Shown: piece after piece, positions 1 through 23,245 of the stretch
Numbering within the stretch: the stretch's first letter is position 1
How the letters are laid out: each line of letters opens with the position of its first letter
Assembly: GCA_963740355.1 (NCBI GenBank)
Contig: CAVUDW010000002.1
Location: forward strand, 1,632,001-1,696,000
Source: an uncultured Gemmatimonadaceae bacterium
GTDB taxonomy: Bacteria > Gemmatimonadota > Gemmatimonadetes > Gemmatimonadales > Gemmatimonadaceae
DNA length: 64,000 nt
Direction: 5' to 3'
Position numbers and translations under genes: made by a program
Notes under the pieces: model-generated
What the model saw: the letters and a program-made list of their open reading frames with translations, nothing else
What the model was told of the DNA's origin: nothing
Databases searched by the model: none

Positions 1-702
1 CCCACCGCCGCGTGGACGAACGGCTTCAAGGGCGGCACCGGCGCGCCGGGACAGACGTGGGCAGCGCGCGGGTGGGCCGTGCTGTACCCGAACCCGCGCG
101 GCTCGACAGGCTACGGTGAATGGTGGATGCGCGCCAACACCGGCGACTGGGGCGGCGGCGACTATCGCGACATCATGACCGGCACCGACGAAGTGGTGCG
201 GCTGGGCATTGCAGATCCGGAGAAGTTGGCATTCGAGGGGTGGAGCTACGGCGGCTACATGACGTCGTGGGTTGTGTCGCAGACGACGCGCTTCAAGGCC
301 GCGATGATGGGTGCTGGGTTGCCGTCACTGCTCTCGATGGCCGGCACCACCGACATCCCCGGCTACATCAACACCTTCTTCGGCGACCCGCAGTACGATG
401 GTTCGATCATCAATCCGAACATCAAGAAGTACCTCGAGCGCTCGGCCATCAGCTACACGAGCCGCATCACTACGCCGCTACTGATCCTGCACGGCGGCAA
501 TGACGAGCGCGTGCCGATCGGCCAGCCGATGGAGTTCTATCGGGCACTGAAGGATCGGGGCAAGGCGGTGGAGCTGGTCTTCTATCCGCGCGAGGGCCAT
601 GGCCTGTCCGAGTACTACCACCAGGTCGATCGCATGAAGCGTGAGTACGAGTGGATCGCGCAGCACACCCTCGGCGCGCCACGGGCGACGGTGCAGCCGT
701 AG
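1..702 (+). CDS. S9 family (prolyl oligopeptidase/acylaminoacyl) peptidase, C-terminal part; 5' end lies outside window
   Basis: Frame open from base 1; NPRGSTGYG, GWSYGG nucleophile elbow, D-x-R-V and EGH catalytic motifs. Confidence 0.93.
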   Translation, partial: PTAAWTNGFKGGTGAPGQTWAARGWAVLYPNPRGSTGYGEWWMRANTGDWGGGDYRDIMTGTDEVVRLGIADPEKLAFEGWSYGGYMTSWVVSQTTRFKAAMMGAGLPSLLSMAGTTDIPGYINTFFGDPQYDGSIINPNIKKYLERSAISYTSRITTPLLILHGGNDERVPIGQPMEFYRALKDRGKAVELVFYPREGHGLSEYYHQVDRMKREYEWIAQHTLGAPRATVQP

Positions 703-1854: not shown

Positions 1855-2328
1855 TCAGGCAGGCGCACCGCTGAGCACGCGGATGCCGTGACGAGCGCAC
1901 GCGTCCAGCAACGCGGCGATCTCCTCGTCCGAAGGCGGGTTTGCAGGAGGCGGTTCGTGGCGCCCGACATCGCGGAAGAAGTCACGCATTGCTCTCTCCA
2001 CGACGACCAGCATGCGGGCGGTGGTGCTTCCCGCGTTGCGGTAGTTGTGCGGCATCTCCGATGGCACGGTCACGACGGCTCCGGGGCCGACGACAGTTTC
2101 ACTGGCGCCCTCGTCACCGAATTGACCGAAGGTGATCTCACCGGCCACGACATGGAAGATTTCCGGTGATGTGTGCACGTGGGGCGGCGTTCCAGAGCCG
2201 CTCGGCACCTCCACGTCGAGAACGGCGAGATCGGTACCATCGAGCTCGCCCATGAAACGAACGCGGTCGCGTACGACCCAGACTGCCTCGGCGTCTGCCG
2301 CGCGAGTGATGTGCATGGTGCTTGGCAT
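1855..2328 (-). CDS. Cupin domain protein
   Basis: PPHVH...E and VPSEMPHNYRN cupin motifs; start trimmed to MPSTMH after a GGGGGA purine stretch. Confidence 0.85.
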   Translation of the reverse strand: MPSTMHITRAADAEAVWVVRDRVRFMGELDGTDLAVLDVEVPSGSGTPPHVHTSPEIFHVVAGEITFGQFGDEGASETVVGPGAVVTVPSEMPHNYRNAGSTTARMLVVVERAMRDFFRDVGRHEPPPANPPSDEEIAALLDACARHGIRVLSGAPA

Positions 2329-2615
2329 GTTAATCCCCCGACGACGTGTCGGACTGCGAGATGTTGGAGTGGTGCCTCGATCGGCGCGTGAGATGTGCAC
2401 ACGGTGTCGGTGCGGGCACTTATCACCCACGACGACACGCGCTCGGATCGAGACACGTTTGGCGGCGGGATGATTGCTTGTCCCGAACAGTGGCACGGCG
2501 TGCGGATCGCGAAAATAGGTTGAACGACCCATCTCACGTTCGACGATTGCATCCGGCCGGGCTGGCGCGCATTCCTCAGCTCGCGTTTTCCTTCGCGACG
2601 GAGGGCGACGACCTG

Positions 2616-4652
2616 CTACAGCGGCATGACCGCACGCTCCGGCGCACTGATCTCGACCATCAGTAGCGCCATCTCGAGCGCAGACACCCGCCGTGGCGCA
2701 CTCGTTGCTGCCGCTACCACCACGCGCCGCGCATCGGCGACCCATCGAAGGTCGCCAGTCAGCTGGTGACGCCGCAGCAACGCAAAAACACGAGGAAGCG
2801 GATTTCTCGGGAGACGCGCAGCCAATGCCGATCGCCTGAATTGCTCGTCGCCATACATGTCGTACGCGGTGGCCCAGAGCCACACGTCGCCCGCGCGATT
2901 CTCGCGCAGGGCCTCGATTCGCGCGACCAGGTCATCCCGCACTGCGACGGTGCCGCTGACGGCAAGCGTCAATGCGACTCGCACGAGCGTCGCTTCTGTC
3001 GAGCGAACGGCGTCGTAGCGTGCGGCTGATGCGTGCAGCAGGTGGTCGAGACGTTGCTCTGCCCACGATGCCAGCTCCAGGATGTTTGATGCCCGCGACG
3101 CGTCGCCGTGGAGCAGCCGCGCGGCCGCGAGAAGCGCCACGGCCGCTTCGGGGCCGTCACGGAGCTTGTCTGCCGTCGTCATGAGGCGGGTGATGGCGAG
3201 TGTCTCTGCACGCACATCCGATCGCGCACGCGCAACCTGCACCGCAGTCGCAAGACTCCGCCAGCCCCGCTGTGCGCCAGCGATCAGGATGTCGGCAGCC
3301 GCCAGAAGCTCGGCGTCCTCGAGCGCCACAGCGGCGCGAAGCGCGAACCATGCCTGGGCGGCCGGATCAGTGTTTCGTGCCAGCGCGCGCACGTCAGCGA
3401 CGCTCTCGTCGAACGCACGTTGTGTTGCGGGTGGCCAGGGCGTACTCGTGTCCGTCGGCAGGACGGCCGACGAGAACGCCTCCGCCATCACCGAGACATC
3501 CAGGAATCGGTGCGCTGGCTCCTTGCTCAGTGCGCGTCTGAGAACGGCCTCGCCGGTTGGCCAAGCCGGGATCCCGCGCGCGGCGAAGGGCAGCATGGGC
3601 CGACAGACGATGTTCCTCAACAACTCATCGTGGATGGCGGGCGCGTTGATGGGAGGCAATCCCGTCAGCAACAGGTAGCCGAGCACTGCGATCGCGTACT
3701 GCTCCGATTTCGGCGTGGCTGCAGGAGGCAGTTCGCCAGCCAGCAATGCAGCGGCCATCTGCGGATCGTGGAACTGTGGAATGCCCGAACGCAGGGGATC
3801 GACCACGTCGTGTGCCGCAGTCGACCTCGCATTCCCGAAATCCAGCAGCACGACGCGACCATCGTCGCGCACGAGACAGTTGCCCGGATGGATGTCACCA
3901 TGCAGCACGCCCATGTGATGCAGTCGACCGTAGGCAGCGAACAGGTCGCTCACGATCTTCTGCAATCGGCGTGGGTCGCGCGCCGCACGTGCCTGTTGTG
4001 CTGCCGTGGCGATGGAGACGCCGTCACACCACTCCATGGCCACATACACCCGCCCATTCACCGATCCGTGATGCAGCAGACGCGGGCTGTCGTCGCCGCC
4101 GAGGCGGTCGAGCACACGCGCCTCGTGCGCCATCATGGCGATGATGCCGGGCCGATCATCGCGCGCGATCTTCAGCGCTACCGACACCGCGTCGGGACCG
4201 CGCGCCCGATAGACCTCCGAATCCTCGAGCGAGCGGATCAGCGCCTCGATCTCGAACCCGTCGAACTCCTGACCGGCAGCGAGGCTTGGCGCGGTGGCGT
4301 TCGCGTCAGGCGATCCGGCGGGCACGAGGATCCGTGTCTCGACGAGCGTCGCAATGGCATCGAACGCCAGCTCCAGCATTTCGTTGGGTTCCTGATCGTG
4401 CGCACGCGAAAATCGAAGGACGGCGTCAGTGATCAGACTGGGTGCGCGAAACTCACCGATCAGATCGGCGAGTGGACCCGGCACGAGCCGTGTCGTCACC
4501 CGAAAGCCCGGACGGGTGATGACGGCCTGCCCGACATCCACTGGGCCGATCCGCGTGCGCAGTCGACCCGATAGTTCCGATACCGCCAGAAACCTCGCAT
4601 CTGGCGGCAGGATGAAGCGTGTCGTGGCGACGTCTGGTGGCGCATTCGTCAT
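2616..4652 (-). CDS. Ser/Thr kinase with N-terminal RRE/PqqD-like region and degenerate LanC-like helical C-terminus (lanthipeptide-synthetase-like)
   Basis: VALK, HGDIHPGN, DFG kinase motifs; C-terminal ALLRRHQLTGDLRW resembles a LanC repeat; ATGA overlap with upstream gene. Confidence 0.75.
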   Translation of the reverse strand: MTNAPPDVATTRFILPPDARFLAVSELSGRLRTRIGPVDVGQAVITRPGFRVTTRLVPGPLADLIGEFRAPSLITDAVLRFSRAHDQEPNEMLELAFDAIATLVETRILVPAGSPDANATAPSLAAGQEFDGFEIEALIRSLEDSEVYRARGPDAVSVALKIARDDRPGIIAMMAHEARVLDRLGGDDSPRLLHHGSVNGRVYVAMEWCDGVSIATAAQQARAARDPRRLQKIVSDLFAAYGRLHHMGVLHGDIHPGNCLVRDDGRVVLLDFGNARSTAAHDVVDPLRSGIPQFHDPQMAAALLAGELPPAATPKSEQYAIAVLGYLLLTGLPPINAPAIHDELLRNIVCRPMLPFAARGIPAWPTGEAVLRRALSKEPAHRFLDVSVMAEAFSSAVLPTDTSTPWPPATQRAFDESVADVRALARNTDPAAQAWFALRAAVALEDAELLAAADILIAGAQRGWRSLATAVQVARARSDVRAETLAITRLMTTADKLRDGPEAAVALLAAARLLHGDASRASNILELASWAEQRLDHLLHASAARYDAVRSTEATLVRVALTLAVSGTVAVRDDLVARIEALRENRAGDVWLWATAYDMYGDEQFRRSALAARLPRNPLPRVFALLRRHQLTGDLRWVADARRVVVAAATSAPRRVSALEMALLMVEISAPERAVMPL

Positions 4653-5407
4653 GCGAGACACCCCTCCACGAATGCGTCGGGGTTCGCGTGCCAACGCACC
4701 GGATCGACACCCATCGCGCGCATGTCGGCGAGCACGGCGTTGGCGACATTACCCAACGGTGATGCGCGGTGCGTGGTGAGGCTGGCCGCGAGGCGCTTCG
4801 TGATCCATGATCGCCAGCTGACAGGTGTTTCGCTGGCGGGTGGATCGACGCCAGCGGAGAGGAGCCCGTTGCCGGCCAGCCCGGTGGTGAAGGGCACGCC
4901 TTGCGCGGGGCATCCCAGCAGCACTCGATCGAGCTCACGTGCAACCGTGTCGAGGTGGTCGTGCCCATCGAAGTAGGCGACGAGTTTGTCTGGGCGCAGC
5001 AAGCCTTCGATGCCGCGTCCCACCTTGAACGATCGCACGTTGCTTCGTGCGAGCACGTCTACGATGCGCGGAAACGCCTCCGCGAGTGCCTCCGGCCTCG
5101 GACTGACGTAGAGCTTGCAGGCCGGCTCGAACTGTAGCTGCAGCGGTAGTCGCGCGAAGGAATACCAGCCAGCGAATGAGGTGGCTTCGTACTCTGCCTC
5201 GAGTCTACGTCGTGCGGCGCCGCCGACAGTCAGGCCGAGCACGGCCATCGGGTCGTCGTCAGGCCCGAAGTCGCGCTCAATGGCTGGACCGCGCGGCAAC
5301 GTGCCGAATCGGTACAGCCACTGGGCGACGACGCCTGAATCCATCGACGGCACGCTGGCTGCCATTCGAAGCGCAGCCAGCGACAGCTGCTCGATACGCT
5401 CAGGCAT
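4649..5407 (-). CDS. HopA1/LanY-like putative phosphoSer/Thr lyase
   Basis: KLYVSP...SFKV...RPDKLVAYF...VPFT pattern resembles HopA1-type and class III/IV lanthipeptide lyase domains. Confidence 0.68.
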   Translation of the reverse strand: MPERIEQLSLAALRMAASVPSMDSGVVAQWLYRFGTLPRGPAIERDFGPDDDPMAVLGLTVGGAARRRLEAEYEATSFAGWYSFARLPLQLQFEPACKLYVSPRPEALAEAFPRIVDVLARSNVRSFKVGRGIEGLLRPDKLVAYFDGHDHLDTVARELDRVLLGCPAQGVPFTTGLAGNGLLSAGVDPPASETPVSWRSWITKRLAASLTTHRASPLGNVANAVLADMRAMGVDPVRWHANPDAFVEGCLA

Positions 5408-5427
5408 GCGGCATCTCGGTAAAGGCG

Positions 5428-6006
5428 TTAACCGAGACTCTTCAGTGCCCCTTCGAGCTGCGCGCGAACCGCGGCAACTTCAGCCCCACGCGGCGCCTGC
5501 GCCGCCGCCGCGCCGTCGACGAACTTGACCGTCTGCGCGAGCTGCTTCTGCAGGCGCGGCAGCTCGCTGACGCGATGCACCGCCAACCCGACATGCACGA
5601 TCGGCGTCAAAGTCGGTGGAATCGTCTCCAGTGAGGTGCCGCCGCATTCAGGGTCGGGGTATCCTACGGCGCCACCACCGAGGCCAGCGTAGGCCGCACT
5701 GGCGACGACTGCGGCGCCGATCTCGTGAATCGCTTCCCGGATCGCCGGGCTGCCGCCGCTTCCACCAGCGACGAATGCGCCGGCGATATCGTCGAACTTC
5801 TTTGCCTTGATCGCTTCCGCGATCGTGCCGCGTACCGCCTCGATGCGCGCCAGGTTCGCAAGCACACTTGCAATCGGCGATATCGGTGATGGTGGTGTGG
5901 GATCGTCGGGTCCTGGCATCCACGTACCGCCGCGACTGGCTGCGCCGATACTGACCACCAGATCCTTGATGAGAAAATCCTTTCGGGAAAAAGCTCTCGT
6001 CGCCAT
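5428..6006 (-). CDS. Putative large precursor/substrate protein of the lyase-kinase operon (192 aa)
   Basis: GGAG RBS before ATG at 6006; N-terminal FLIKDLVVSI; two P/S/T-rich segments each followed by an amphipathic helix; 20 nt upstream of lyase gene. Confidence 0.6.
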   Translation of the reverse strand: MATRAFSRKDFLIKDLVVSIGAASRGGTWMPGPDDPTPPSPISPIASVLANLARIEAVRGTIAEAIKAKKFDDIAGAFVAGGSGGSPAIREAIHEIGAAVVASAAYAGLGGGAVGYPDPECGGTSLETIPPTLTPIVHVGLAVHRVSELPRLQKQLAQTVKFVDGAAAAQAPRGAEVAAVRAQLEGALKSLG

Positions 6007-6412
6007 TTCATTCTCCATGCTCAAGGGGAACAGCAAACCCACGATCCATTCCAACAACGATGCCACGACGGGCGTTGTGCACGGCGCTGGCGTGCTGCGG
6101 ACTCCATCGCGTCACAGGATGGAGCAGAAGACTCTCTGCGACGTGGACGAAACGCTCGATGCATTCATCGATGATTGGCCGGTCGCTCGAGTCGCGCCGC
6201 AGCGGCGACAACAGTGAGTGACGGCTTTCCGTTCGTCAAGCACCGAATGTGCGCCACGACAAGCAACGTGTCAGTCGTGTTGCTCATCTCACTCGATGGC
6301 AGGCTCGACGTTCACGACGACGACCTCGACACTGCTACGTGCGCCTCATGCGCAACGCGTTCATCAGCTCGCTGGCAATTGTCGTGAGCGTTTTTGCGCG
6401 GCGATTTCGTGT

Positions 6413-8840: not shown

Positions 8841-10439
8841 TCACCACCACTCGACGCCAAGGAGATTCGGCTCGGCTACCAACGCGTCGCGAAACCGAAG
8901 GTTGACGAACGCACCGTCGGTGACTCGTACTGCGCGGAGCAGGCGGGTCGAATTGATTCGCGCGAGCAGCATCGACCCATCAGGTGACCAGCTGATGCCG
9001 CCGAAATAGTCACCCACGTTGAGGAGGCGTGTGCCGGTGCCATCCGTGCTGACCACCGACATCCCAACGGCCGGGGTACCGATGGCATTGGCATTCGCCA
9101 CGAGGTATGCCACCCGGTCGCCGGATGGCGCGAACATCGGCTCCCGAGCCATTGGCGCGAGTACGGTGGAAGCACCGGAGGCTATGGTGAGCAGGCGGAG
9201 TTCGCTGTTCTGCGCCCCAGTGTAGGAAACGAAAGCGAGACGCGTGCCGTCCGGGGAGAGATCGGCGCCGAAGAACTGCGGGATCAGCGTCGGGAGGTCC
9301 GCGAGCTTCGTGATGGCGCCGTCGGTCGTCGCACGGTACACCGCCATGTAGTTCGGACTCGGGTACGGCTCGATGGGTCGCGCGACCATCATCACCGTGC
9401 CGTCTGCCAGCACTCGCGCCGTGAGGATATCCTGGAAGTTGGAAGGATTTCGAATCGTGCGGATCGTCGCACCGAGCGAATCGATCACACGAATGCCAAG
9501 TGTCGCGGGTCCCTGCGCGGTATCTGTCACAACGCGAACGAGGGCCCGATTCTGAGCCCGACTGGCGGCACGGAGGTAGCCGACGAGTGAGGGCCCGGAC
9601 GGGAAGACCGATCGTTCCTCACTGCCATTGAAGTTGAGCAAGCGAATGCCGAAGTCGTTGTCGCGTGTCACGCCGATGATGCGTCCCAGCGGTCGCACGC
9701 CGACATTGGTGGAATCGGCGGCGCCCCCTCGACGGGCGTAGATCCGTTGAGTTCCCATGTCGAGGGCACGGACGACGCCCGTCGCCGAGTCGATAGAAAC
9801 TGCGCTGCCCGTGGCTGCGGAAATGAGTGGACGCTCCGCCCTCGGATTGCCGAAGCGATCGGCGACGGTACCGGTGACGGTGGCTGTTGCCCCGATATCG
9901 AGGAGGATATCGCTCGTAAACGCGGTCACGCGCGCGGGCGCCCCCGGCGTCACAGTGAATTCCAGTGTGTCGCTATTCGGCAGCCCCTGAACCGCGGAGA
10001 CGATCAACATCTTGCCGGCGATATTTCCGAGTCTGACTCGAAATTCCGCCCGCCCGTCCTTGTCAGTGACGGCGCCGAGTGGCGCGATGCTTTTGGGGCA
10101 GGGTACGAGCGCTGGTGGGCAGACGTAGGCTGCTGCTTCGTCGAAGCGACCGGGATACACTCCTGCCGGGAGACCGCCGATCCCCACGATTACGCCGGGG
10201 ATCGGGTTGCCGTTCCGGCCGCGCACTTCAGCGATGATCGGCTGGATGATCTGTGCCTCGATCGTGTCGCTGACCACGCCAGTGTAGCGGAGCGTCACGC
10301 CAGCGCTTTTGGTGTCGGGGCCCGTCGCATCTCTGCAGCTGCTGGCGATCGAGAGCACTGCAAGCAGGACAGCGATCCTGCGCGCGCGGCGAGGTGAGGC
10401 GATGGTATTCGATGACGCTATCGGGTGTTGCACGTGCAT
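8841..10439 (-). CDS. Lipoprotein with Ig-like domains and TolB/PD40-like propeller
   Basis: Lipobox ASSC; TDKDGRA and DRFGN Ig motifs; LSPDG, FAPSG, WSPDG repeats. Confidence 0.78.
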   Translation of the reverse strand: MHVQHPIASSNTIASPRRARRIAVLLAVLSIASSCRDATGPDTKSAGVTLRYTGVVSDTIEAQIIQPIIAEVRGRNGNPIPGVIVGIGGLPAGVYPGRFDEAAAYVCPPALVPCPKSIAPLGAVTDKDGRAEFRVRLGNIAGKMLIVSAVQGLPNSDTLEFTVTPGAPARVTAFTSDILLDIGATATVTGTVADRFGNPRAERPLISAATGSAVSIDSATGVVRALDMGTQRIYARRGGAADSTNVGVRPLGRIIGVTRDNDFGIRLLNFNGSEERSVFPSGPSLVGYLRAASRAQNRALVRVVTDTAQGPATLGIRVIDSLGATIRTIRNPSNFQDILTARVLADGTVMMVARPIEPYPSPNYMAVYRATTDGAITKLADLPTLIPQFFGADLSPDGTRLAFVSYTGAQNSELRLLTIASGASTVLAPMAREPMFAPSGDRVAYLVANANAIGTPAVGMSVVSTDGTGTRLLNVGDYFGGISWSPDGSMLLARINSTRLLRAVRVTDGAFVNLRFRDALVAEPNLLGVEWW

Positions 10440-10794
10440 GTGACGTGAAAGGAAATGGCGTTGCCTGTGTGTCGGGCGACCAGCGTACCACGCTCCGGGC
10501 CGACTTGGGATCAGAAAAGGAATTAACCCGCGATCCGGCGCCGGGCAACGCCGTGCAACGACGTGCTACGGCGACTGCGTGGCGCGGCGAAAGGCCGAGC
10601 GCCGTCATGCAACGCGAGTCCTCCGCTCCCATCGGCATCGCGGGAATCTTCCGCTCTGGACGACCGTTCGAGCGACGGCTCCGAACGTGGCCTGAGGGTG
10701 ACAGCGTGCCACCCGGATGCGATACTCCTGTCCTCGGCGCGGGCGCATTCCACCTCGGCCCACTGCGAGTACACAAGCAAGGAGAGAAGGGCAG

Positions 10795-12777
10795 ATGCGA
10801 ACCGAACACCGGTCTTTCTCCGCGCGGGCGAAGAACACGCCTTTGGGCTTGCTCCTCACACTTGCTGCGGGCCTCCTCCTCGTAGCGACGACGGCGTTCG
10901 CTCAAGCGCGAAGCCTGGACTGGACTGCCTTCGCGGTCGACGCGCGCCTCGACAGCACGGGGACACTGATCGTTCGCGAGCGGCAGACGATTCTCTTCAA
11001 CGGCGACTGGAACGGTGGCGAACGCACGTTCGACGTGCGGCAAGGCCAACGGTTCGTGTTCCGACGGCTCTTGCGCGTCGACAGTTTGACGGGTGCCGAG
11101 GTCGCGATGCGGGAGGGGTCGCTCGATGTCGTGGATGGGTACGCGATGACGGATCGCCGCACCCTTCGCTGGCGCAGTCGATTGCCTGGCGATCCCGAGT
11201 TCCTGAATACGAAGATCACGTACGTGCTCGAGTACGAGTACTCTGATATCCTCCTGACCGAGGGCAGCGGATATCGGCTCGATCACGAGTTCGGGTTCCG
11301 TGATCGCACGGGCACCATCGCCAACTTCGACCTCACGCTTCGCCTCGATCCGGCGTGGCGCGCGCCAGCTGAGTTTACCGGCACCTTTCACCAACAGGTG
11401 CTTGAGCCCGGGATCGGCTACGTGGTCGATATCCCGCTCGTGTGGCGAGCGGCGGGTCTTCCCTCAGCGGTGCGACGCAGCCCGCCGATTACGCTGCGAC
11501 TGGGTTTGGCGGCTGCGCTGCTGCTCGCCATCGTGTTGATGACGATCCCCTTCCTTCGCGACGAAATTGCCGCTGGGCGATTCGAGCCGCTGACACCGAT
11601 CAGCAGCATCGACCGCCCATGGCTCGAGAAGCACGTGCTGTCGATGCGACCAGAGCTGGTAGGCTACGCCTGGGACGAATCGGTCGGACCGCCGGAGGTG
11701 TCGGCTGTGCTGGCGCGTCTCGTGAACGAGAAGAAGCTCGGCAGTCGAGTCGAGTCCTCGGGTGCGAAGTTCATGGCGCGACACATCCTGCATCTCGAGC
11801 TGCTGGTGCCACGGACTGAGTTCCACGGCTATGAACGATCCCTGATCGATGCCTTCTTCGCCTCGCACTCGACCACGACCAGCACCGACGAGATCAAGGA
11901 GCGTTACAAGAGTTCAGGGTTTGACCCGTCGGGCATCATCCGTCGGGCCTTGACCGAGGAGTTCACGCACACGGCCGGCATGGCTGAACCAAGCACGAAG
12001 GTGCGACGGTGGCCGCTGACCGTCGCGCTGTTCGTCTCCGGAATCGTACTGCTTGGAGTCGCAATTTTCTTGCGACCCGCGGATGGCGAAACGGCACTGC
12101 TCGCAGTGGCAATCGTCGGTGTGCCGAGCTTCGCGGTCGCGCGCGTGCTGGCCGAGCTCTGGCGGCGACGGGTAGTGAGGCCAGGGCGCCATCTGATGCT
12201 CGTGCTGCTGCCACTGGCGTTACTCGTTAGCGCGTACTGCTGGGTGGCTGCGACGGGGTACGGAATGCTCGGCCTTCTGGCGTTGGCTGCCTGGGCAGTG
12301 CTGACGATCGCCGCGCTTCTCTCGGTGCTGAACGGCTCGCGAACGATCTCGCCGAAGACACGCCTGCTGCGTCGCAAGGAGCTGGCGTCAGCGCGGGAGT
12401 ATTGCCGCATCGAGCTGCAGAAGCCGGCACCTGCGCTGGATGACACCTGGTACCCGTATCTGCTCGCGTTCGGACTCGGGCGTCACGTCGAGAAATGGTT
12501 CCGTGCCTTCGGCGGGGCGGCCACCACATCCATGTCGCGCAGTGGCTACACGGCCACCAACCATTCCTCGAGCGATTCCAGCAGTGGGTCGAGCGGCGGC
12601 ACGTTTTCCGGCTTCGGTGGCGGCGGTGGCTTCAGCGGCGCGGGTGCGACGGTGGCGTTCGGGTCCGCGGTGGGCGCGATGTCGAGTGGGGTCTCGGCGC
12701 CGAGCAGCAGTTCGAGCGGCGGGGGCAGTAGCAGCAGCGGAGGGAGTTCCGGCGGGGGTGGCGGCGGGGGCTGGTGA
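10795..12777 (+). CDS. DUF2207 family membrane protein
   Basis: N-terminal 'GTLIVRE..I.F.G..G.R' pattern, TM helices, YLLAFGL and Gly/Ser tail ending GGGGGGGW. Confidence 0.85.
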   Translation: MRTEHRSFSARAKNTPLGLLLTLAAGLLLVATTAFAQARSLDWTAFAVDARLDSTGTLIVRERQTILFNGDWNGGERTFDVRQGQRFVFRRLLRVDSLTGAEVAMREGSLDVVDGYAMTDRRTLRWRSRLPGDPEFLNTKITYVLEYEYSDILLTEGSGYRLDHEFGFRDRTGTIANFDLTLRLDPAWRAPAEFTGTFHQQVLEPGIGYVVDIPLVWRAAGLPSAVRRSPPITLRLGLAAALLLAIVLMTIPFLRDEIAAGRFEPLTPISSIDRPWLEKHVLSMRPELVGYAWDESVGPPEVSAVLARLVNEKKLGSRVESSGAKFMARHILHLELLVPRTEFHGYERSLIDAFFASHSTTTSTDEIKERYKSSGFDPSGIIRRALTEEFTHTAGMAEPSTKVRRWPLTVALFVSGIVLLGVAIFLRPADGETALLAVAIVGVPSFAVARVLAELWRRRVVRPGRHLMLVLLPLALLVSAYCWVAATGYGMLGLLALAAWAVLTIAALLSVLNGSRTISPKTRLLRRKELASAREYCRIELQKPAPALDDTWYPYLLAFGLGRHVEKWFRAFGGAATTSMSRSGYTATNHSSSDSSSGSSGGTFSGFGGGGGFSGAGATVAFGSAVGAMSSGVSAPSSSSSGGGSSSSGGSSGGGGGGGW

Positions 12778-12805: not shown

Positions 12806-12940
12806 CAATCCGGTGACAGTGCACTCAATTCGGGCGCGATCTGGTGACGGTGCGCGCGGGGCAATCCGGGGAAATCCGGTGACAGTGCACTCAATTCGGA
12901 GAATTGAGTGCACTGTCACCGGATTGCGGTCACCGGATTG
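12806..12940. repeat. REP-like cluster (one full palindrome plus extra arms)
   Basis: Several aatccggtgacagtgcactcaattc / gtcaccggatt units. Confidence 0.92.
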
Positions 12941-13107
12941 CTCCCCCCCCAACGATGGCGCGATGCCCCGCCTCCACCCCGGGTCATTCGACCCGGGCGA
13001 TTCGGAGGACCGCCACACACCTTGAGGAGTCTCCGGGCGCCACGCGCCTCACTCCCGCTCGCCACGCCTGCCTGTCCCCCCACGCGTCGCTTCGACAGCC
13101 TTCGCCC

Positions 13108-15939
13108 ATGGACACCCTCACGAACCCCGACCTTGCGGCCGGGCACCCGTTCGCATCGAGCGGCCAGCACCTCGAACTGATCGAGCAGCTCGCCGGCCTG
13201 GGCAGCTGGGAAATTTCGCTGCACACCGACGCCATCACCTGGTCGCGCGAACAACAGCGCATCCACGGCGTTGATGCCACGACCATGCCGCGGACCCACA
13301 CCGCGTTCATGAAGATGGTGCATCCCGACGACGTCGAGATCATCAATACCGGTATGGCGGAGCTCGAGCACGGGGCGCCGGTGACCGTGGAATTCAGGAT
13401 CATCCGCCCCGATGGGCAGGTGCGGCTGCTGCAGGCGCGCGGCCTCCTGCAACGTGATGCGGAGGGCTCGCCCGCGTGGGTCAGAGGCACGTCGCTCGAC
13501 ATCACCGAACGCCGCGCCACCGAGGCGGCGCTGCGGGCCAGTGAGGAATCGTACCGCACCATCTTCCAGCACGCGTCCGATGCGATGTGGCTGCATGACA
13601 TCGATACCGGCGCCTTCCTCGCCGTCAACGAAGCCGCCTGCCAGATGTACGGCTTCTCGATGGAGGAACAGCTGCAACTGGGTGTCGCCGGGCTCAGCGC
13701 TGGGGTCGCTCCCTACCGTCTCGAGGATGCCCTCGCCTTCATCACGCGCGCCGTGGCCGGCGAGCCACAGCGATTCGAGTGGCTCGGCAAGCACAAGAAC
13801 GGTGGCACGGTGTGGGGCGAGGTTCGTCTCCGTCGCGTGCGATTGAACGGCGTCGACCGTATCCTCGCGACAGCGCGCGACATCAACGATCGCGTGAGTG
13901 CCGAGCGTGCACTGCGCGACTCGTACGAGCAGCTCGAACGCCGCGTGGAAGAACGCACGCAAGAATTGGCAGCCAGCAACGCGGCGCTCGAACTGGAAGT
14001 CGCCGGACACACGCTCGCACGAAAGGCGCTCAGCGCGCGCGAGGAACACTTTCGCCGCCTGATCGAGGAATCGAACGACTACGTGATGATCGTGGACGCC
14101 TCAGGCGCGGTGACGTCGGTGGGTTCATCGGTGGAACGCGTGCTCGGCTATCATCCGGACGAGATGATCGGACTGCGCCCGGATGCGCAGCTGCATCCGG
14201 ATGACATAGCGCAGGCAGGCATCGTGCTCGCCGACGTGCTGGCGCACCCCGGGCTGACGCGTACGCTGGAGTGCCGGATCCGCCACAAGAATGGAAGCTG
14301 GCGCGTGATCGAGGCAATCGGTCGCACGGTCTCACCGACGAGTGTCGAGGAAGGCATCGTGGTGAATGCCCGCGACATCACCGAGCGGCTGAACGTCGAG
14401 CGTGCCGTGCGCGAGCGCGATGAGCGCTTCCGACAGATCATCGAGAACGCTGCCGATTTCGTGATGACATGCGATAAAACTGGTGCGCTTACCTATGTCG
14501 GGCCCTCCTCGCTCAAGATGCTCGGCTATGAGCCCAATGAGTTGCTGGGGACGCGTCCAATCGACCTGCTGCATCCGGACGATGTCGCCCGCACGATGCG
14601 CGAACTCGAGGTGGTGGTCCGGAATCCCGGACAGTCGATCACCAGCACGTTCCGCATCCGACGCAAGGATGGCAGCTACGTCGTGATGGAGAACGTGGGC
14701 CGGACCATGTCGCCGCACTCTCCTGACGAAGGTGTCATCGCATTCGGTCGCGACGTCACTGGCCGGCGCCAGGCCGAGGAAGCGCTGGCGCGCGCCAAGG
14801 AGGAGGCAGAGCGCGCCAACCGCGCCAAGAGCGAGTTCCTCAGCCGCATGAGCCACGAGCTCCGCACGCCGATGAACAGTATTCTCGGCTTCGCGCAGCT
14901 GCTCGCACGCGGGGAACTCTCACCACAAAACGGCAAGTCGGTCCAGCACATCCTCAAGGCAGGTCGACACCTGCTGCACCTGATCAACGAAGTGCTGGAA
15001 ATCGCGCGCATCGAGGCAGGCCGAGAACAATTCTCACTAGAGCCCGTGCTGCTGGCGCCGGTGCTCGAGGAAGCGCTCGGCCTCGTGCGACCGCTGGCCC
15101 ATCAGCATGGGGTGACGCTGCGGGGCGACGCCTGGCCCGCTGAACTGTACGTCCACGCCGATCGGCAACGATTGCTCCAGGTGCTGCTCAACCTGCTCAG
15201 CAACGCCATCAAGTACAACCAGCCTGGCGGGACCGTGGACCTCTATGCCACCGGTGATGCGACACAGCGTTGCCGCATTCGAGTGCGAGACTCGGGGAAG
15301 GGCATCGCAGCCGAGCGCGTGGACGAACTGTTCACGCCATTCGCGCGACTTGGTGCCGAGCAATCGGAGGTGGAGGGAACGGGCCTCGGTCTCGCGCTCT
15401 CTCGACGCCTCTGCGAAGCGATGGGAGGCCAACTCTCGCTCGAACATTCCGGAACGAACGGCAGCACGTTCGTCGTGGAACTCGATGCGACCATCAGCCC
15501 GCTGGCAGAGTTCGTGGACGCCGAGCGCGCACCGACCGAGCGCGCCGCCTATCGCGACGCAACACTGCTCTACATCGAGGACAACCTTGCGAACCTCGCT
15601 CTCGTGGAGACGATCCTGCTGTCACGGCCCGGCTGGCGCGTGGTGCCAGCCTTGCAGGGGCAGCTTGGCCTTGAACTCGCGCGCGAACACCAGCCGGACG
15701 TCATCCTGCTCGACGTGCACCTTCCCGACCTTTCCGGGCTCGAGGTACTGCGCAGGCTGCGCTCCGAGACGCGTACCGCCTCCACCCCAGTGGTGGTGGT
15801 CAGTGCCGACGCTACCTCGGCATCGGTTGAGCGCCTGCGCTCTGCCGGTGCCAACGCGTACCTCACCAAGCCGCTCGATGTCGACGAATTCCTGTCTGTC
15901 CTCGATCGGTACATCCCCATCGTGGAGCCGACGCGATGA
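13108..15939 (+). CDS. Multi-PAS hybrid sensor histidine kinase with C-terminal receiver
   Basis: Four PAS/PAC units (HPDD, DITER), MSHELRTP, NAIKYN, GTGLGL, receiver IEDN...LLDVHLP. Confidence 0.93.
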   Translation: MDTLTNPDLAAGHPFASSGQHLELIEQLAGLGSWEISLHTDAITWSREQQRIHGVDATTMPRTHTAFMKMVHPDDVEIINTGMAELEHGAPVTVEFRIIRPDGQVRLLQARGLLQRDAEGSPAWVRGTSLDITERRATEAALRASEESYRTIFQHASDAMWLHDIDTGAFLAVNEAACQMYGFSMEEQLQLGVAGLSAGVAPYRLEDALAFITRAVAGEPQRFEWLGKHKNGGTVWGEVRLRRVRLNGVDRILATARDINDRVSAERALRDSYEQLERRVEERTQELAASNAALELEVAGHTLARKALSAREEHFRRLIEESNDYVMIVDASGAVTSVGSSVERVLGYHPDEMIGLRPDAQLHPDDIAQAGIVLADVLAHPGLTRTLECRIRHKNGSWRVIEAIGRTVSPTSVEEGIVVNARDITERLNVERAVRERDERFRQIIENAADFVMTCDKTGALTYVGPSSLKMLGYEPNELLGTRPIDLLHPDDVARTMRELEVVVRNPGQSITSTFRIRRKDGSYVVMENVGRTMSPHSPDEGVIAFGRDVTGRRQAEEALARAKEEAERANRAKSEFLSRMSHELRTPMNSILGFAQLLARGELSPQNGKSVQHILKAGRHLLHLINEVLEIARIEAGREQFSLEPVLLAPVLEEALGLVRPLAHQHGVTLRGDAWPAELYVHADRQRLLQVLLNLLSNAIKYNQPGGTVDLYATGDATQRCRIRVRDSGKGIAAERVDELFTPFARLGAEQSEVEGTGLGLALSRRLCEAMGGQLSLEHSGTNGSTFVVELDATISPLAEFVDAERAPTERAAYRDATLLYIEDNLANLALVETILLSRPGWRVVPALQGQLGLELAREHQPDVILLDVHLPDLSGLEVLRRLRSETRTASTPVVVVSADATSASVERLRSAGANAYLTKPLDVDEFLSVLDRYIPIVEPTR

Positions 15940-17579
15940 CCGCCACCGTCGAACCCATCGCCGCGCTTCGGCATGCACGGACACGTGCATGCACGATCCT
16001 GCTCGTGGACGATGAACCGGCGAATCTCGACCTGCTCGAGGCGCTGCTCTCCGGTGAGGGGTACACGAGCCTCCTGCGCGCGAGCGATCCGCGTGTCGTC
16101 CCATCGCTCGTTGAGGCGCACGCCCCCGACCTGGTGCTGCTCGACCTGCATATGCCGCATCGGCATGGGCTCGATGTGCTGGCGGATCTTGCGGAGCTCA
16201 CACCCGCTGGTGACTACCGACCCGTACTCGTGCTCACGGCCGACGTGACGGCCGACGCGCGCGATCGAGCACTGGCGCTCGGGGCGCGTGACTTCGTGAC
16301 GAAGCCGTTCGATACCACCGAGGTGGTGTTGCGTGTGCAGAACTTGCTTGACACTCGTGTGCTCTACCTCGCGGAACGCGAAGCTCGCGTGCGCGTCGAG
16401 CAGGCGGAGATGCGTGCGGCGCTACTGGCGACGTGGAGCCGGATTCTTGCATCCGTCATCGACCCGCGGCAGGCGATCACCCACCTGCCGCGCCTGCTCC
16501 TGCCGCGATGGACCAGCGCCTGCGCGATGGGCGTTGGACTCGAACCTGGCGAGAAGATCGACTGGATAGGGGCAGATAGCGGAAGTGACGTCGACGCCGC
16601 TTCGCTCGAGACGGTTGCGAGGGTGGTGGTCGAGTCGCCGACGATTGCACGGGATGAAGCGATGTTCGTCTCGCCGATCATCACACGCGACGGCGTGGTC
16701 GGTGCACTGGTCGTGGCGCGGACGGCCAGCGCATCCGGCATGGACCAGACGCTGCTCAATGAATTGGCGGCACGCCTCGCGCTGGCTGTGGAGCATGCGC
16801 GACTGCTCGCCTCCGCAGAGCTGGCCGTGACGGAACGCGAGCGACTGCTTGCCGTGGTGGCGCATGACCTGCGCAATCCACTCGGTGCCGTCTCGATGTA
16901 CGCCGAGATGCTGGCCAACCTGCAGCCGTCACCGGATGACGATGCGCCGTCGCCGCCGGATGCGGAAACACGTCGGTTCGCCCATTCCGCGGTACAGACG
17001 ATCCATCGAAACGCGGCCGCGATGCAGCATCTGGTCGAGGATCTGCTTGACGCCTCGACGCTCCGTGCGAGTGCCATGCGCATTCATCGATCGCCGGTCG
17101 ATGTCGAGCCGCTCATCGATGATCTTCACCGGATGATGCGAGCGCGCGCGGACGACGCTGGGGTAACCCTCGACATGGAGTCTGACGGACCCGTCGGCGT
17201 CGTGACACTCGACGGCATTCGCGTCAGGCAGTTGCTGTCGAATCTCATCGGGAACGCGATCACATTCACGCCGCGCGGGGGTGAGGTGCGCCTGCGCTAT
17301 GCCGTCGCGTCCGACACGGTGACGCAGCACCCGGTATTGCGAGGCAGCGTGTCCGACACAGGGCCCGGGATTCCAGCTGACGAGCTCCCGCATCTGTTCA
17401 CGGCATTCTGGCGCGGCGATCGGCGCGACCGGAAGGGGGCGGGGCTCGGGCTATGGATCGCCAATGCGATCTGCGAGGCGCACGGTGGCGACCTGCGCGT
17501 CGAGACCTTGGTCGGCGCCGGTTCGACGTTTCATTTTACGTTGTCGCTGGTAGACACGTCTCGGCGGCCGGAAGACTGA
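15936..17579 (+). CDS. Receiver-(GAF-like)-histidine kinase
   Basis: LLVDD...LLDLHMP...TKPF; AHDLRNPL; DTGPGI; GAGLGL; ATGA overlap. Confidence 0.9.
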   Translation: MTATVEPIAALRHARTRACTILLVDDEPANLDLLEALLSGEGYTSLLRASDPRVVPSLVEAHAPDLVLLDLHMPHRHGLDVLADLAELTPAGDYRPVLVLTADVTADARDRALALGARDFVTKPFDTTEVVLRVQNLLDTRVLYLAEREARVRVEQAEMRAALLATWSRILASVIDPRQAITHLPRLLLPRWTSACAMGVGLEPGEKIDWIGADSGSDVDAASLETVARVVVESPTIARDEAMFVSPIITRDGVVGALVVARTASASGMDQTLLNELAARLALAVEHARLLASAELAVTERERLLAVVAHDLRNPLGAVSMYAEMLANLQPSPDDDAPSPPDAETRRFAHSAVQTIHRNAAAMQHLVEDLLDASTLRASAMRIHRSPVDVEPLIDDLHRMMRARADDAGVTLDMESDGPVGVVTLDGIRVRQLLSNLIGNAITFTPRGGEVRLRYAVASDTVTQHPVLRGSVSDTGPGIPADELPHLFTAFWRGDRRDRKGAGLGLWIANAICEAHGGDLRVETLVGAGSTFHFTLSLVDTSRRPED

Positions 17580-17601
17580 CGTTGTCCTTCGCCTGACCGC
17601 C

Positions 17602-18249
17602 ATGCCGATCGCCACCACTGCGCACCGCGCTGCGCGCATTCTCGTCGTCGAGGATACGCCCGACTTCGCCGAGGCGCTATCCAGCATCCTGCGACTCGAA
17701 GGGCATGAGGTCATCGTCGCTGGTCGCGCCATGGAGGCGTTGGCGCGCGCACGCGCGGAACCGCCGGACCTCGTGCTCCTGGATCTGGGCTTGCCTGACC
17801 GCGACGGCTATCACGTGCTGCGTGAGCTTCGGGCGCGAGGCTGCGACTGCCCGGTGCTGATCCTGTCGGCGCGCTCGCTCGAGAGTGACAAGGTCGAGGG
17901 GTTTCGACTCGGCGCCGATGATTACGTGACCAAGCCGTTCGGCGCGCTGGAACTGATGGCACGCATCTCCGCACTTTTGCGCAGGTCGCGCGCCGTTGTC
18001 GTACCGACGACGCAGGCAGCGACGATGCGCCGGCTCGACGACGTCGACCTGCAGGCGCGGTTCGGGCTGACCGAACGACAGATCGCCGTGGCGCGCTTGA
18101 TGGCCGATGGGTGCACGAATGCCGAAGTTGCGGCGCGCCTTGGGCTGAGCTTCTTCACCGTCCGCAATCACGCCGAGCAGGTGATGTTGCGACTCGGCGT
18201 GAACAAGCGCTCGGCGGTCGGGCCGATGCTGCATGAGCAACTGCCTTAG
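17602..18249 (+). CDS. Response regulator with LuxR-type HTH
   Basis: LLDLGLPD, GADDYVTKPF; LTERQ..VA.L...G.TNAEVA..L.LS..TVRNH. Confidence 0.9.
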   Translation: MPIATTAHRAARILVVEDTPDFAEALSSILRLEGHEVIVAGRAMEALARARAEPPDLVLLDLGLPDRDGYHVLRELRARGCDCPVLILSARSLESDKVEGFRLGADDYVTKPFGALELMARISALLRRSRAVVVPTTQAATMRRLDDVDLQARFGLTERQIAVARLMADGCTNAEVAARLGLSFFTVRNHAEQVMLRLGVNKRSAVGPMLHEQLP

Positions 18250-21082: not shown

Positions 21083-23245
21083 CTAGGTCGTTCCGAATTC
21101 GATGACCCGCCAGCCGGTTTTTGTTCGCTGAAGCGTGATCAGCCACCGCTCCTCGCGGGACGTCGGGCTACCTCGTACTGGTACGAGTCGCATCGTGACG
21201 TTCGCCTCGATATCGGTATGTGACCCAACTGTAGCGTCGTAGTCGCCTGAGCCGTTGATCGAAACTCCTTGGACTCGGATTCGCACCGACTTCAGCGTCT
21301 TGACCGAGTCCGAAAGCTCCGCAACGTCCTCCTCCGCGACAACAGCAGGGAACCGATTCCTGATCAGGCGCAAGTCGAGTGTTTCATGCGCCCGGGCAAG
21401 CGACTCGACGACAGCCCGCGCCTCCGATGCCAATTGCGCTTGCGTGATAGTTGTCACGAGCGGCGCGCCTCCGCCGCCAGCGACGCGAACCACGATGTCT
21501 ACGCGCCGCCGCCCGGCTTCGCCCGCATCCACCGTAATGAACGCACGGCCCGGAGCGATTGCCGTGACCATTCGCGTGACCGGATCAACGACGGCGACGC
21601 TACTGTCGCTTGTTGTGAAGCTGATTGCGGCGTTCACAGGTCCACCGGTCACAAGACTTTGGACCCAAGTGTGGAGCTGGACGCGCTGACTTGGCCGTAG
21701 CTCGCCCTCGCTTCCCCTGTTGACCACTAGCCTGGTTTGTCCGATTGTCGTGGTCTCCCTCACGGGAGTCGTTACAGCTGCTATGACGGCCTTGTTCGAG
21801 GGCACCGCTCGTCGCGGCGCTGCAGTGTCAGATGTGACCGTGCTTGAAGCACGCTCACGCTCCACCGCTGGCTCACCGCGCAGAAGCGCCCAGCCGCCGA
21901 CAACGGCCCCGAGGACGCCGCCGCCGATCGCGACCAACGGATGGCGTTTTACTGGTGCCGTTCGCGGATCGACGGTCTTTGGCCCGGCGGCACGCGATTT
22001 CGGCGGAGAGGAATCCGTCGCTGCTTTGACAGCGGGCGCCTGCGCAACCTGCCGCCCTCCGTGCCAAATATCTTTGACCGCCGAGGCCTCGATCGCCTCA
22101 GCCTCGCGCACCGGCGGCGCGCTTGGCGTATCGGCGACCGGGCGGGGGAGCGGAATAGGAATGACGGGTGGGCGGAGCGGGTCGCCGAGTGCTGCCCTTG
22201 GCTCCTGTTCCGCGGCCAGATGCACGATCACGGCGCGCACCTGCGAATCGTCGCCGACTGGATATGCCTCCAGAGATTGCAGTGCCTCGGGGATGCTCGG
22301 AAAGCGATCGGTTGGCGACTTCGCCAGCATGCGAAGGATCGTACGCTCCACCGACTCGGGAATAGCAGGCATGACGGCACGAATGGACGGCACTGATTGT
22401 CCGATGTGCCCGGTCATGATGGAAATCGGCGAACCGGAGAACGGAACACCGCCAGTCAGCATATGGTAGGCAACGATGCCCAGTGAATACTGGTCGCTCC
22501 TGCCATCAAGTTCCCCTGCATGACACTGCTCGGGACTCATGTACGCCGGTGTGCCAATCACCATCCCAGTCACGGTGTGTGACGGTGCCGCGGCGACCTT
22601 CGCGATGCCGAAGTCGGTGACGAGGGCATCGCCGTCGCTGGAGAGGAGCACGTTCCCCGGCTTGATGTCGCGATGGATCACGCCGCGGCGGTGCGCGTAC
22701 GCGAGCGCAGTTCCGACCTGGTAGAGAATTGGGCGCGCGATGTCGAGCGGTAGCGCGTGATGGTGGCGCAGGACGGCTTCGAGTGACTGCCCCTCGATGT
22801 ACTGCATGACGAAGAACTGGAGGTCCTGAAGCTGCCGCACGGCGTGCACCGTCACGATGTTTGCGTGCTGCAAATTCGCGATCGTGACGGCCTCCTGTCG
22901 GAACCGATCGATCATCCCCTCGCCCATCAGGAGGCCGGGCGCCATCACCTTGATCGCGACCTTTCGGTTCAGCGCCAGGTCGTGTGCGAGGAACACCGCA
23001 GCCATGCCACCGCGTCCGAGTTCGCGACCGATGTCGTACTCGCCGAGAGTGGCCTGTCGCAGCCGAGCAAGCACGCCGTCCCATGGCGAGTGCTGCGCAG
23101 CGAACGCTATCAACGACGGTGACCAGTTCCCACCAGTCACTAGCCCCACACCGCTGACCGCTGCCCCGCACTGGGGACAGTACCGACTCTGGTCAGAGAC
23201 TGGGCTGCTGCAACTCGGGCAGGTAGCAGTGCGCGACGCGGTCAT
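21083..23245 (-). CDS. Ser/Thr protein kinase with N-terminal zinc ribbon, TM helix and extracellular Ig-like domain
   Basis: CPSC..CPQC; LGRGGM, VAIK, HRDIKPGN, DFG, GTPAYMSPE; Big_2-like SDSSVAVVD. Confidence 0.92.
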   Translation of the reverse strand: MTASRTATCPSCSSPVSDQSRYCPQCGAAVSGVGLVTGGNWSPSLIAFAAQHSPWDGVLARLRQATLGEYDIGRELGRGGMAAVFLAHDLALNRKVAIKVMAPGLLMGEGMIDRFRQEAVTIANLQHANIVTVHAVRQLQDLQFFVMQYIEGQSLEAVLRHHHALPLDIARPILYQVGTALAYAHRRGVIHRDIKPGNVLLSSDGDALVTDFGIAKVAAAPSHTVTGMVIGTPAYMSPEQCHAGELDGRSDQYSLGIVAYHMLTGGVPFSGSPISIMTGHIGQSVPSIRAVMPAIPESVERTILRMLAKSPTDRFPSIPEALQSLEAYPVGDDSQVRAVIVHLAAEQEPRAALGDPLRPPVIPIPLPRPVADTPSAPPVREAEAIEASAVKDIWHGGRQVAQAPAVKAATDSSPPKSRAAGPKTVDPRTAPVKRHPLVAIGGGVLGAVVGGWALLRGEPAVERERASSTVTSDTAAPRRAVPSNKAVIAAVTTPVRETTTIGQTRLVVNRGSEGELRPSQRVQLHTWVQSLVTGGPVNAAISFTTSDSSVAVVDPVTRMVTAIAPGRAFITVDAGEAGRRRVDIVVRVAGGGGAPLVTTITQAQLASEARAVVESLARAHETLDLRLIRNRFPAVVAEEDVAELSDSVKTLKSVRIRVQGVSINGSGDYDATVGSHTDIEANVTMRLVPVRGSPTSREERWLITLQRTKTGWRVIEFGTT

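Follow-up and report, generated by a model that had tools for sequence, protein, structure and literature searches.

Gene organization of the cassette

The DNA under study is a 64,000-nt stretch (hereafter the window) from an uncultured Gemmatimonadaceae bacterium (GenBank assembly GCA_963740355.1, contig CAVUDW010000002.1, positions 1,632,001 to 1,696,000). Three genes in it, here called g1, g2 and g3, encode a 192-amino-acid (aa) protein, a free lyase-like protein, and a kinase with an additional domain on either side. Their coordinates are collected in Table 1. A first-pass annotation made from the sequence alone had described three co-oriented, tightly packed genes with a 20-nt gap and an ATGA overlap; the coordinates and the motifs (KLYVSP, SFKV and RPDKLVAYF in g2, LTGDLRW in the g3 tail) were confirmed. 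The gap lies between the g1 stop codon and the g2 ATG (5407), and the overlap is consistent with translational coupling of g2 to g3. The length of the g1 homologs (190 to 193 aa) favors the ATG start over a GTG at 6066. Neither g1 nor g2 matches any Pfam family at E <= 0.1, and no second copy of g1, of the lyase or of the g3 N-terminal domain is found in the 64-kb window.

Table 1. Positions of the cassette genes, their predicted domains and associated signals in the window.
Feature	Position	Strand	Basis
g1, proposed substrate, 192 aa	5428..6006	minus	ATG at 6006, stop at 5428
g2, predicted stand-alone phospho-Ser/Thr lyase, HopA1/LanY fold, 252 aa	4649..5407	minus	AlphaFold2 model and Foldseek
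g3 complete, 678 aa: putative RRE-like domain, kinase, LanC relic	2616..4652	minus	
g3 residues 1 to ~120, putative RRE-like (PqqD-like) domain	4293..4652	minus	model, weak Foldseek matches
g3 residues ~125-420, Hanks-type Ser/Thr kinase domain	3393..4280	minus	Pkinase match, intact catalytic residues
g3 residues ~421-678 and stop, degenerate LanC-like relic	2616..3392	minus	hhalign to LanC of relatives
GGAG, Shine-Dalgarno-like, 6 nt before the g1 ATG	6013..6016	minus	sequence
ATGA overlap, g2 stop and g3 start	4649..4652	minus	sequence

g2 is predicted to be a free phospho-Ser/Thr lyase

g2 was modeled by AlphaFold2 from a 113-sequence alignment, with a predicted local distance difference test score (pLDDT) of 92.7 and a predicted template modeling score (pTM) of 0.91. 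Foldseek comparison of the model with the PDB gave 21 matches at E <= 1e-3, and all those listed are phospho-Ser/Thr lyases, as the first-pass annotation had supposed for this gene. The top match is LxmY of the lexapeptide LxmKY dehydratase (9dk1_B, E 1.4e-7; also 9dk2 and 9dk3). Further matches are HopA1 (4rsw, 4rsx), the lyase domains of SalKC, CuvL, ThurKC and PneKC, and SpvC, OspF and VirA. A protein-language (Atlas) search pointed in the same direction, with features leading to HopA1 clusters (0.93) and a recognition value under the tool's reliability mark. In sequence searches of the PDB, the matches of g2 alone were weak and taken as chance, and the lyase alignment, used as a profile, reached no significant match (best E 0.3).

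K98, Y100, K128, R138, D140 and Y145 are invariant in the g2 alignment. The spacing K128-10-R138-7-Y145 equals that of K219, R229 and Y236 in CaoY, where K219A and R187A abolish elimination and R229Q impairs it, according to the available text of PMC9486802. A non-significant profile match (E 0.61) pairs K98-L-Y-V-S and F-K128 of g2 with K-I-H-I-S ... F-K near the N-terminus of 9wop, an 871-aa chain titled 'protein kinase domain-containing protein'. By spacing and by this kind of non-significant profile and motif alignment, rather than by superposition, K98 would equal SpvC K104 (CaoY Arg187), and Y100 appears to take the place of SpvC His106. With a high-confidence model of this fold and the candidate catalytic residues K128 and Y145 invariant, we assign g2 as a predicted phospho-Ser/Thr lyase of the HopA1/LanY fold.

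Relatives of g2 are numerous. A word-indexed search returned 793 at E <= 0.001 among 6542 scored candidates, and all the named ones are annotated 'hypothetical protein'. An exhaustive search at the same threshold found 1159 representatives of 50% clusters, many of them about 390 aa long with an additional N-terminal region of about 130 aa.

The three-gene arrangement is conserved across phyla

The lyase alignment was used to scan one genome per species, which gave 261 confirmed places. Eighty loci were kept for analysis and compared with the window proteins by tblastn. A kinase-domain match stands directly 3' of the lyase in 78 of them; of the two exceptions, one (L074) shows the N-terminal domain and then the contig end, and in the other (L007) the contig ends 5 nt past the lyase match. 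Seventeen loci form a close clade with 52 to 73% lyase identity. g1 is found directly 5' of the lyase in all 17 (in L011 the match is limited to g1 residues 3-160), and the kinase open reading frame (ORF) is complete in 14 and cut by the contig end in two, L007 ending after the lyase. The remaining 63 loci have a lyase of about 390 aa with 32 to 43% identity and a kinase protein of about 800 aa. Because the kinase lies downstream in 78/80 loci and g1 upstream in 17/17, the three-gene arrangement is not due to chance, and the conserved synteny expected from the first-pass annotation holds. With a hidden Markov model of g1, matches were obtained in all 17 close loci, in L025 and L067, where g1 likewise lies upstream, and weakly in L019. 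Sphingomonas parva 17J27-24 (L015), Roseomonas alba HJA6 (L016) and Lysobacter tyrosinilyticus are cultured strains among the carriers.

A quick IQ-TREE analysis based on the catalytic part of the lyase groups the window with 16 of the 17 close loci in one branch, at a Shimodaira-Hasegawa-like approximate likelihood ratio test (SH-aLRT) support of 97. This branch holds 17 of the 80 rows; the L007 lyase, being cut, was excluded. Its members come from Chloroflexota, Acidobacteriota, Verrucomicrobiota and Pseudomonadota, and this mixture of four phyla is therefore read as probable horizontal spread. The sister of the branch is L025, from an Actinomycetota metagenome-assembled genome (MAG), with support of 90.

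g3 combines a putative RRE-like domain, a Hanks-type kinase and a degenerate LanC-like tail

g3 residues 145-342 match Pkinase of Pfam (E 1.7e-13, 51 bits; the APH model gives 39 bits), and the best PDB sequence matches are PknE and PknB. K161, H251-G-D253-I-H-P-G-N258 and D271-F272-G are invariant across 54 kinase sequences. The Hanks-type kinase of the first-pass annotation is thus borne out by both the family match and the catalytic residues. Among NCBIfam models, LanL (NF038150) ranks next after the MAD6 defense kinase, at 69.7 bits with a cutoff of 650. Its profile positions 189-496, the kinase part, align with g3 residues 131-437 and no other part is matched. The LanKC model scores 46 bits against a cutoff of 575.

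The N-terminal domain of g3 (residues 1-133) was modeled from 68 sequences with a pLDDT of 79.3. Three strands (20-23, 43-46 and 54-57) are followed by three helices (59-69, 74-84 and 89-105). In the Foldseek search, 22 of the 30 listed rows are maturation proteins of RiPPs, peptides synthesized ribosomally and modified post-translationally: MibB, TigE, PqqD, ThcOx, TbtB, TglHI, TbiB1 with leader, the PbtF RiPP recognition element (RRE), MccB, MadB and TruD. The entry titles of PqqD and PbtF state that the aligned parts are RRE domains, and we take the aligned parts of the other RiPP entries to be RRE domains as well. The g3 N-terminal domain is also homologous to the N-extension of the long lyases (hhalign 89%, E 2.2e-6, 87 columns). 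We consider it, with moderate confidence, a predicted RRE-like domain.

The C-terminal 260 residues of g3 gave no Pfam match, LANC_like (PF05147) included, at E <= 0.1. Profile comparison of the tail of the window clade with the LanC domain of 53 distant proteins gave an hhalign value of 99.6% (E 9e-24, 249 columns). On account of this homology the tail is assigned as a LanC relic, which has lost the catalytic His and the zinc-ligand motifs. The alignment shows deletions of the FYN...SPYH loop and of the GWCNGSAG and LCCGLAG segments, and the AHGWAG stretch is replaced, with its His gone. The His and GWC motifs are both missing from all 14 close-clade kinases; all three motifs (AHGWAG, GWCxGxxG and C[CH]G, as strict patterns) occur in 49 of 60 distant kinase ORFs. 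The C[CH]G pattern takes the form CCG in 51 distant kinase ORFs, which is presumably a three-Cys zinc site as in ProcM-type enzymes. Across close loci the relic retains 35 to 52% identity. The LanC-like tail of the first-pass annotation therefore stands as homology, and the motifs of a working LanC do not. With the catalytic His and zinc-ligand motifs lost, enzymatic cyclization is doubtful.

A sister family pairs a long lyase with an RRE-kinase-LanC protein

A full LANC_like domain (PF05147, E 5e-22 to 3e-35, profile positions ~5-349 of 350) is present in all eight distant kinases that were tested. The best NCBIfam model for four distant kinases is LanL, which covers the kinase and cyclase and no more, at 123-172 bits with a cutoff of 650. 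Because the lyase N-extension is homologous to the kinase N-terminal domain, both enzymes of the sister family would then carry a recognition domain, and the window lyase would have lost its copy.

ORFs upstream of the distant lyases fall into two clusters, one of 34 loci (L025, L067 and L019 included) and one of 14 loci with products of ~85-120 aa. In both, an N-terminal F-x-[VI]-[KR]-[DE]-L-[MT] motif, for which g1 has F-L-I-K-D-L-V, precedes a variable middle with many Cys and Thr/Ser residues, and the C-terminal segment (L..L+.QL...L), with which the C-terminal part of g1 aligns, is conserved. As a loose pattern, the N-terminal motif is present in 41 of 46 upstream ORFs, which have 3-29 Cys (median 8). 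These sister precursors, at 85-250 aa, have the short length and variable, modifiable core of RiPP precursors. Some cores are tandem repeats: CTPTPPD five times in L027 (5276-5533), CDGESTREVA five times in L058 (4807-5127), and CPDDT-type repeats in L078 (5298-5606). These repeats suggest ladder-like series of repeated thioether rings. The window cassette appears to be a derived branch of a larger family of split lanthipeptide synthetases.

Carriers of the sister family range over many phyla, from Acidobacteriota to Bacillus, and include archaeal MAGs. Two Nitrososphaerales MAG contigs (L032:1862-6199 and L033:4845-9182) each hold the complete sister cassette: the precursor-like ORF has 245 aa, the lyase 396 aa and the LANC_like-bearing kinase 816 aa, with a LANC_like E of 3e-35 for the L033 kinase. 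These contigs may be mis-binned; a 2020 survey, in its available text, gives Archaea with class II clusters alone (PMC7268733). A cultured isolate, Bacillus mycoides GOE10 (L066:4554-8175), encodes a 408-aa long lyase and an 840-aa kinase-LanC protein; no upstream precursor ORF of at least 80 aa was found at this locus. In 17 distant loci (L018:1094-5251, L078:1635-5150 and others), a further ORF family lies just 5' of the small precursor ORF. It comes mostly from Thermoanaerobaculia and other Acidobacteriota, its longest members have 1140-1400 aa, and the two tested each contain two Pkinase domains and a PD40 beta-propeller.

g1 is a conserved one-Cys relative of the sister precursors

The g1 family comprises 396 relatives at E <= 0.001, of which the best 120 show 68 to 84% identity and are 185 to 249 aa long, mostly 190 to 193 aa. 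g1 is the most conserved of the three cassette proteins and exceeds g2 in conservation in 15 of the 17 close loci. It has a leader-like N-terminal motif (F11-L-I-K-D-L-V-V), a Pro-rich stretch (T37-P-P-S-P-I-S43-P) and a Cys site, Cys121 in C-G-G-T-S125-L-E-T128-I-P-P-T-L-T134-P. F11, D15, C121, G123, S125, E127, T128, I129, P130 and P135 are among the invariant residues, and I13, K14, L16, T37, S43, S47, T124, T132, T134, H138 and H144 among the near-invariant ones. Exactly one Cys is present in 52 of 53 aligned sequences, and it lies within C-G-G-[TS]-S in every printed sequence.

The g1 profile was compared with the 34-locus Cys-rich precursor family after removal of L025 and L067, and gave an hhalign match of 91% (E 9.4e-7) over 157 columns that take in the CGGTS site and, at the two ends, the leader motif and the C-terminal segment. 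On this evidence g1 is assigned to a lanthipeptide-type precursor family, as a member with a single remaining Cys that is now a conserved protein. This homology agrees with the large precursor proposed as substrate in the first-pass annotation. g1 has the conserved leader motif of a RiPP precursor and lacks the short length and the variable Cys/Thr-rich core. L025, the sister of the close branch, pairs a one-Cys g1 homolog with a full LanC domain that has all three motifs. This pairing argues that the homologous Cys may be cyclized there, and of the evidence at hand it gives the strongest hint that Cys121 takes part in a crosslink.

Other searches with g1 were less productive. No match was found in Pfam, NCBIfam or PADLOC, and the Atlas search gave nothing usable. 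Menin appeared in a PDB sequence search with weak values (E 0.006 and above) and was taken as chance. SRKDFL was considered as a twin-arginine (Tat) signal and dismissed, since it has a single conserved Arg and runs on into the family-wide F-x-V-K-D-L leader. An origin of the g1 middle region from the lyase N-extension was also rejected (hhalign 0.8%). No transmembrane segment is indicated, with a best 19-residue hydropathy of no more than 1.55.

Comparison with known lanthipeptide synthetases and phospholyases

The class IV enzyme LanL resembles g3 in having a Hanks-type kinase followed by a LanC-type domain, and the cassette in its phosphorylation-then-elimination chemistry. The LanL lyase domain is N-terminal in the same chain, whereas g3 has the RRE-like domain there and the lyase, of HopA1/LanY type, is encoded by a separate gene. 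Tested as a class III/IV enzyme, g3 has the central kinase with its catalytic residues, but it has neither an in-chain OspF-type lyase, its N-terminal model weakly matching RiPP recognition domains and not lyases, nor a full LANC_like domain, and it stays under the NCBIfam cutoffs. The class III LanKC enzymes (e.g., ThurKC) also combine a kinase, a lyase whose domain matches g2 and a cyclase domain without zinc ligands (PMC10604976, available text). LanKC is a single chain with a full-size cyclase; the g3 domain is shorter by about 130 residues and the lyase is separate.

Class V LanK-LanY pairs (LxmKY and CaoKY) share with the cassette a free HopA1-fold lyase and a separate kinase, and LxmY is the top match of g2. 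Class V LanK, however, is a stand-alone APH-type kinase, whereas g3 best matches Hanks-type kinases and is fused to the RRE-like domain and the LanC relic. Neither the class V LanX cyclase nor a flavin-dependent Cys decarboxylase is seen among window ORFs of at least 150 aa or among 22 neighbors in 11 close loci, and the proposed substrate of the cassette is a conserved protein of 192 aa. The locus thus fails defining features of both class III/IV and class V, in agreement with the first-pass annotation, which had placed it in neither. The OspF and SpvC effectors share their fold with g2 (E 2e-4 to 1e-3) and act on protein-sized substrates; g2 differs in that its operon also encodes a kinase of its own and the proposed substrate.

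The adjacency of HopA1 and LanC proteins is already known. Eyles et al. (2021; PMC8153245, available parts) reported that 20% of 1,340 HopA1-domain proteins lie close to, or are fused with, LanC-like cyclases, and called such clusters a possibly new lanthionine synthetase. Those clusters were found via TsaD-like (PF17914-type) proteins together with phosphotransferases and short peptides, whereas the present family is not recognized by PF17914. In two supplement files of PMC8153245, Nitrosomonas, Roseomonas and Bacillus mycoides are absent, and Sphingomonas occurs four times in file 2, one of these rows being Sphingomonas sp. PP-CE-3G-477, a different strain. As far as these parts of that study go, the present family may overlap with its HopA1-LanC families. 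The name 'Class VI' is already used in print for streptococcal LanKCb enzymes (PMC12328550, available text). The literature search, which most subscription journals lay outside, found no description of an RRE-kinase-LanC protein with a separate HopA1-fold lyase, nor of a protein-sized conserved substrate of such enzymes. The split architecture and the protein-sized substrate are therefore apparently undescribed. Such a family could be missed because mining rules assign any kinase-LanC protein to class III/IV and discard precursor candidates of more than 120 aa (PMC7268733, available text).

Proposed mechanism and alternative explanations

Sequence, fold and synteny, from which the chemical steps are inferred, lead us to favor, as the probable reading, a self-contained phosphorylation-elimination cassette in which g2 and g3 modify the ribosomally made g1. 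The RRE-like domain of g3 would bind the N-terminal strand motif F-x-I-K-D-L of g1. The g3 kinase would then phosphorylate conserved Ser/Thr residues of g1, the candidates being S43, S125, T128 and T134, and also T37, S47, T124 and T132. g2, probably docked on g3 in the way LxmY docks on LxmK, would eliminate the phosphate by beta-elimination to leave dehydroalanine or dehydrobutyrine in g1. Cys121 may add to a neighboring dehydro residue to form one (methyl)lanthionine; in the absence of a zinc cyclase the thioether would form spontaneously or be templated by the LanC relic. We hold this thioether step with less confidence than the mechanism as a whole. The product would remain protein-sized and is probably intracellular, since no protease or exporter travels with the cassette.

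More tentatively, and at somewhat less than even odds in our estimation, the family may be a widespread class of split lanthipeptide synthetases in which the window branch gave up its cyclase and modifies a conserved cellular protein. The outcome would be dehydroamino acids and perhaps one thioether, that is, a housekeeping protein modification and not a secreted natural product.

Several observations weigh against the cassette as proposed. g1 is conserved over its whole length, unlike a usual RiPP core, and together with the lone Cys this could mean that g1 is a partner rather than a substrate. The RRE-like domain suggested in the first-pass annotation has the expected topology and mostly RiPP-related matches, but all the matches are weak (best E 5.4e-3, none at E <= 1e-3, TM 0.4-0.53) and the remaining 8 of the 30 rows are unrelated proteins (PKMT1/2, GdmN, Elp123). 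The loss of the cyclase motifs takes away the expected catalyst of the proposed thioether step. Finally, PF17914 does not match g2; among 15 relatives the only match, at 19.6 bits, stays under the cutoff of 22.7, and none of four long relatives is matched.

OspF and SpvC erase phospho-sites on mitogen-activated protein (MAP) kinases, and an analogous role could be imagined here, with g1 a scaffold, chaperone or regulator and the kinase-lyase pair irreversibly erasing phospho-sites on other cellular proteins. The identity of 68 to 84% along the full length of g1, in place of a hypervariable core, would suit such an accessory protein, as would a lyase fold common to effectors that act on folded kinases and the richness of the window and related loci in other Ser/Thr kinases. 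We regard this explanation as unlikely, given that g1 is homologous to Cys/Thr-rich, repeat-bearing precursors that stand ahead of full LanC systems, that g3 keeps an RRE-like domain typical of leader-binding enzymes, and that the single Cys and its flanking Ser/Thr are invariant. Hardly different in probability, if a shade lower, is a phospho-switch in which the kinase marks g1 and the lyase sets a one-way state, with no crosslink and no natural-product role. It would account for the lost cyclase motifs, for a g1 that is protein-sized and conserved, and for export or processing genes not being conserved nearby. It does not account for an invariant Cys121 beside invariant S125 and T128, for a LanC relic that is still 35 to 52% identical, or for L025, which retains a full cyclase for its one-Cys homolog.

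Two other explanations are far less probable than these. The LanC deletions and the loss of the lyase N-extension and of all Cys but one might indicate a functionless, decaying remnant of a lanthipeptide cluster, but a remnant would hardly retain g1 and the lyase in 17/17 close loci across four phyla, with the kinase ORF complete in 14 and contig-cut in two, nor hundreds of metagenomic homologs, invariant catalytic residues and, in g1, the most conserved protein of the three. An anti-phage defense or toxin module built around the Ser/Thr kinase is equally improbable. The kinase domain does match PD-T4-6 and mad6 of PADLOC at ~70-100 bits, and the patchy distribution over four phyla would fit horizontal transfer; these PADLOC matches are confined to the generic kinase domain, g1 and g2 are unmatched, and the neighbors in 11 loci look like ordinary metabolic or housekeeping genes and not a defense island.

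The known settings of dehydroamino acids and lanthionines are short secreted peptides and the damage that host kinases suffer from pathogen effectors. If the proposed reading is true, a bacterial operon applies dehydroamino-acid chemistry to its own 192-residue protein as a regular protein modification, and the cassette would offer an orthogonal enzyme pair with which proteins could be given electrophilic residues. Lanthipeptide biosynthesis would gain another architecture with the sister family.

Surroundings of the cassette

The 22 immediate neighbors of the cassette in the 11 close loci have no family in common: 13 match unrelated families, including peptidyl-prolyl isomerase (PPIase), M20 peptidase, PsiE, amino-acid permease, deaminase, ribosomal protein S1, amidase and thiolase, and nine have no Pfam match. 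When the ORFs of all 80 loci were clustered against one another, only the module, its shadow ORFs and lineage-specific neighbors emerged. Among these 22 neighbors and in the 80-locus clustering, no conserved protease, transporter or decarboxylase stands beside the cassette, as the first-pass annotation had noted for the operon itself. PADLOC matched only the generic kinase domain of the cassette. No Rfam family and no tRNA was found anywhere in the window, and a scan for promoters and terminators gave counts no higher than expected from shuffled sequence.

In the window the cassette is flanked by genes for a cupin, a beta-lactamase-fold protein and a ureidoglycine aminohydrolase. The downstream cupin ORF (1855-2883, minus strand), in its longest form, overlaps the end of g3 by 268 nt. 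Since its cupin domain begins only at residue 219, translation probably starts inside this ORF, and a real overlap with g3 is unlikely. About 1.9 kb past the g3 stop and on the opposite strand, an ORF that runs off the window start (1-702, plus strand) encodes a Peptidase_S9 protein of the prolyl oligopeptidase family (E 6e-49 for 79-702). Prolyl oligopeptidases process some class III leaders, and g1 is Pro-rich; a gene of the Peptidase_S9 type is not conserved in the 11 close loci examined.

Three ORFs of 686, 498 and 451 aa (10717-12777, plus strand; 55255-56751 and 57981-59336, minus strand) have no Pfam match at E <= 1e-6. The window also codes for two Hanks-type kinases, one of them with PD40, and for a PD40/Big_1 protein 2.8 kb upstream of g1 (34973-37153, 21083-23467 and 8841-10439, all on the minus strand). 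These genes resemble the kinase-PD40 proteins of the sister cassettes, which may be a coincidence. A run of genes at 12904-18249 (plus strand) encodes two hybrid kinases, one of them a PAS hybrid histidine kinase, and a LuxR-type response regulator, and a protein with an Mrr-type restriction endonuclease domain is encoded at 59376-60476 (minus strand).

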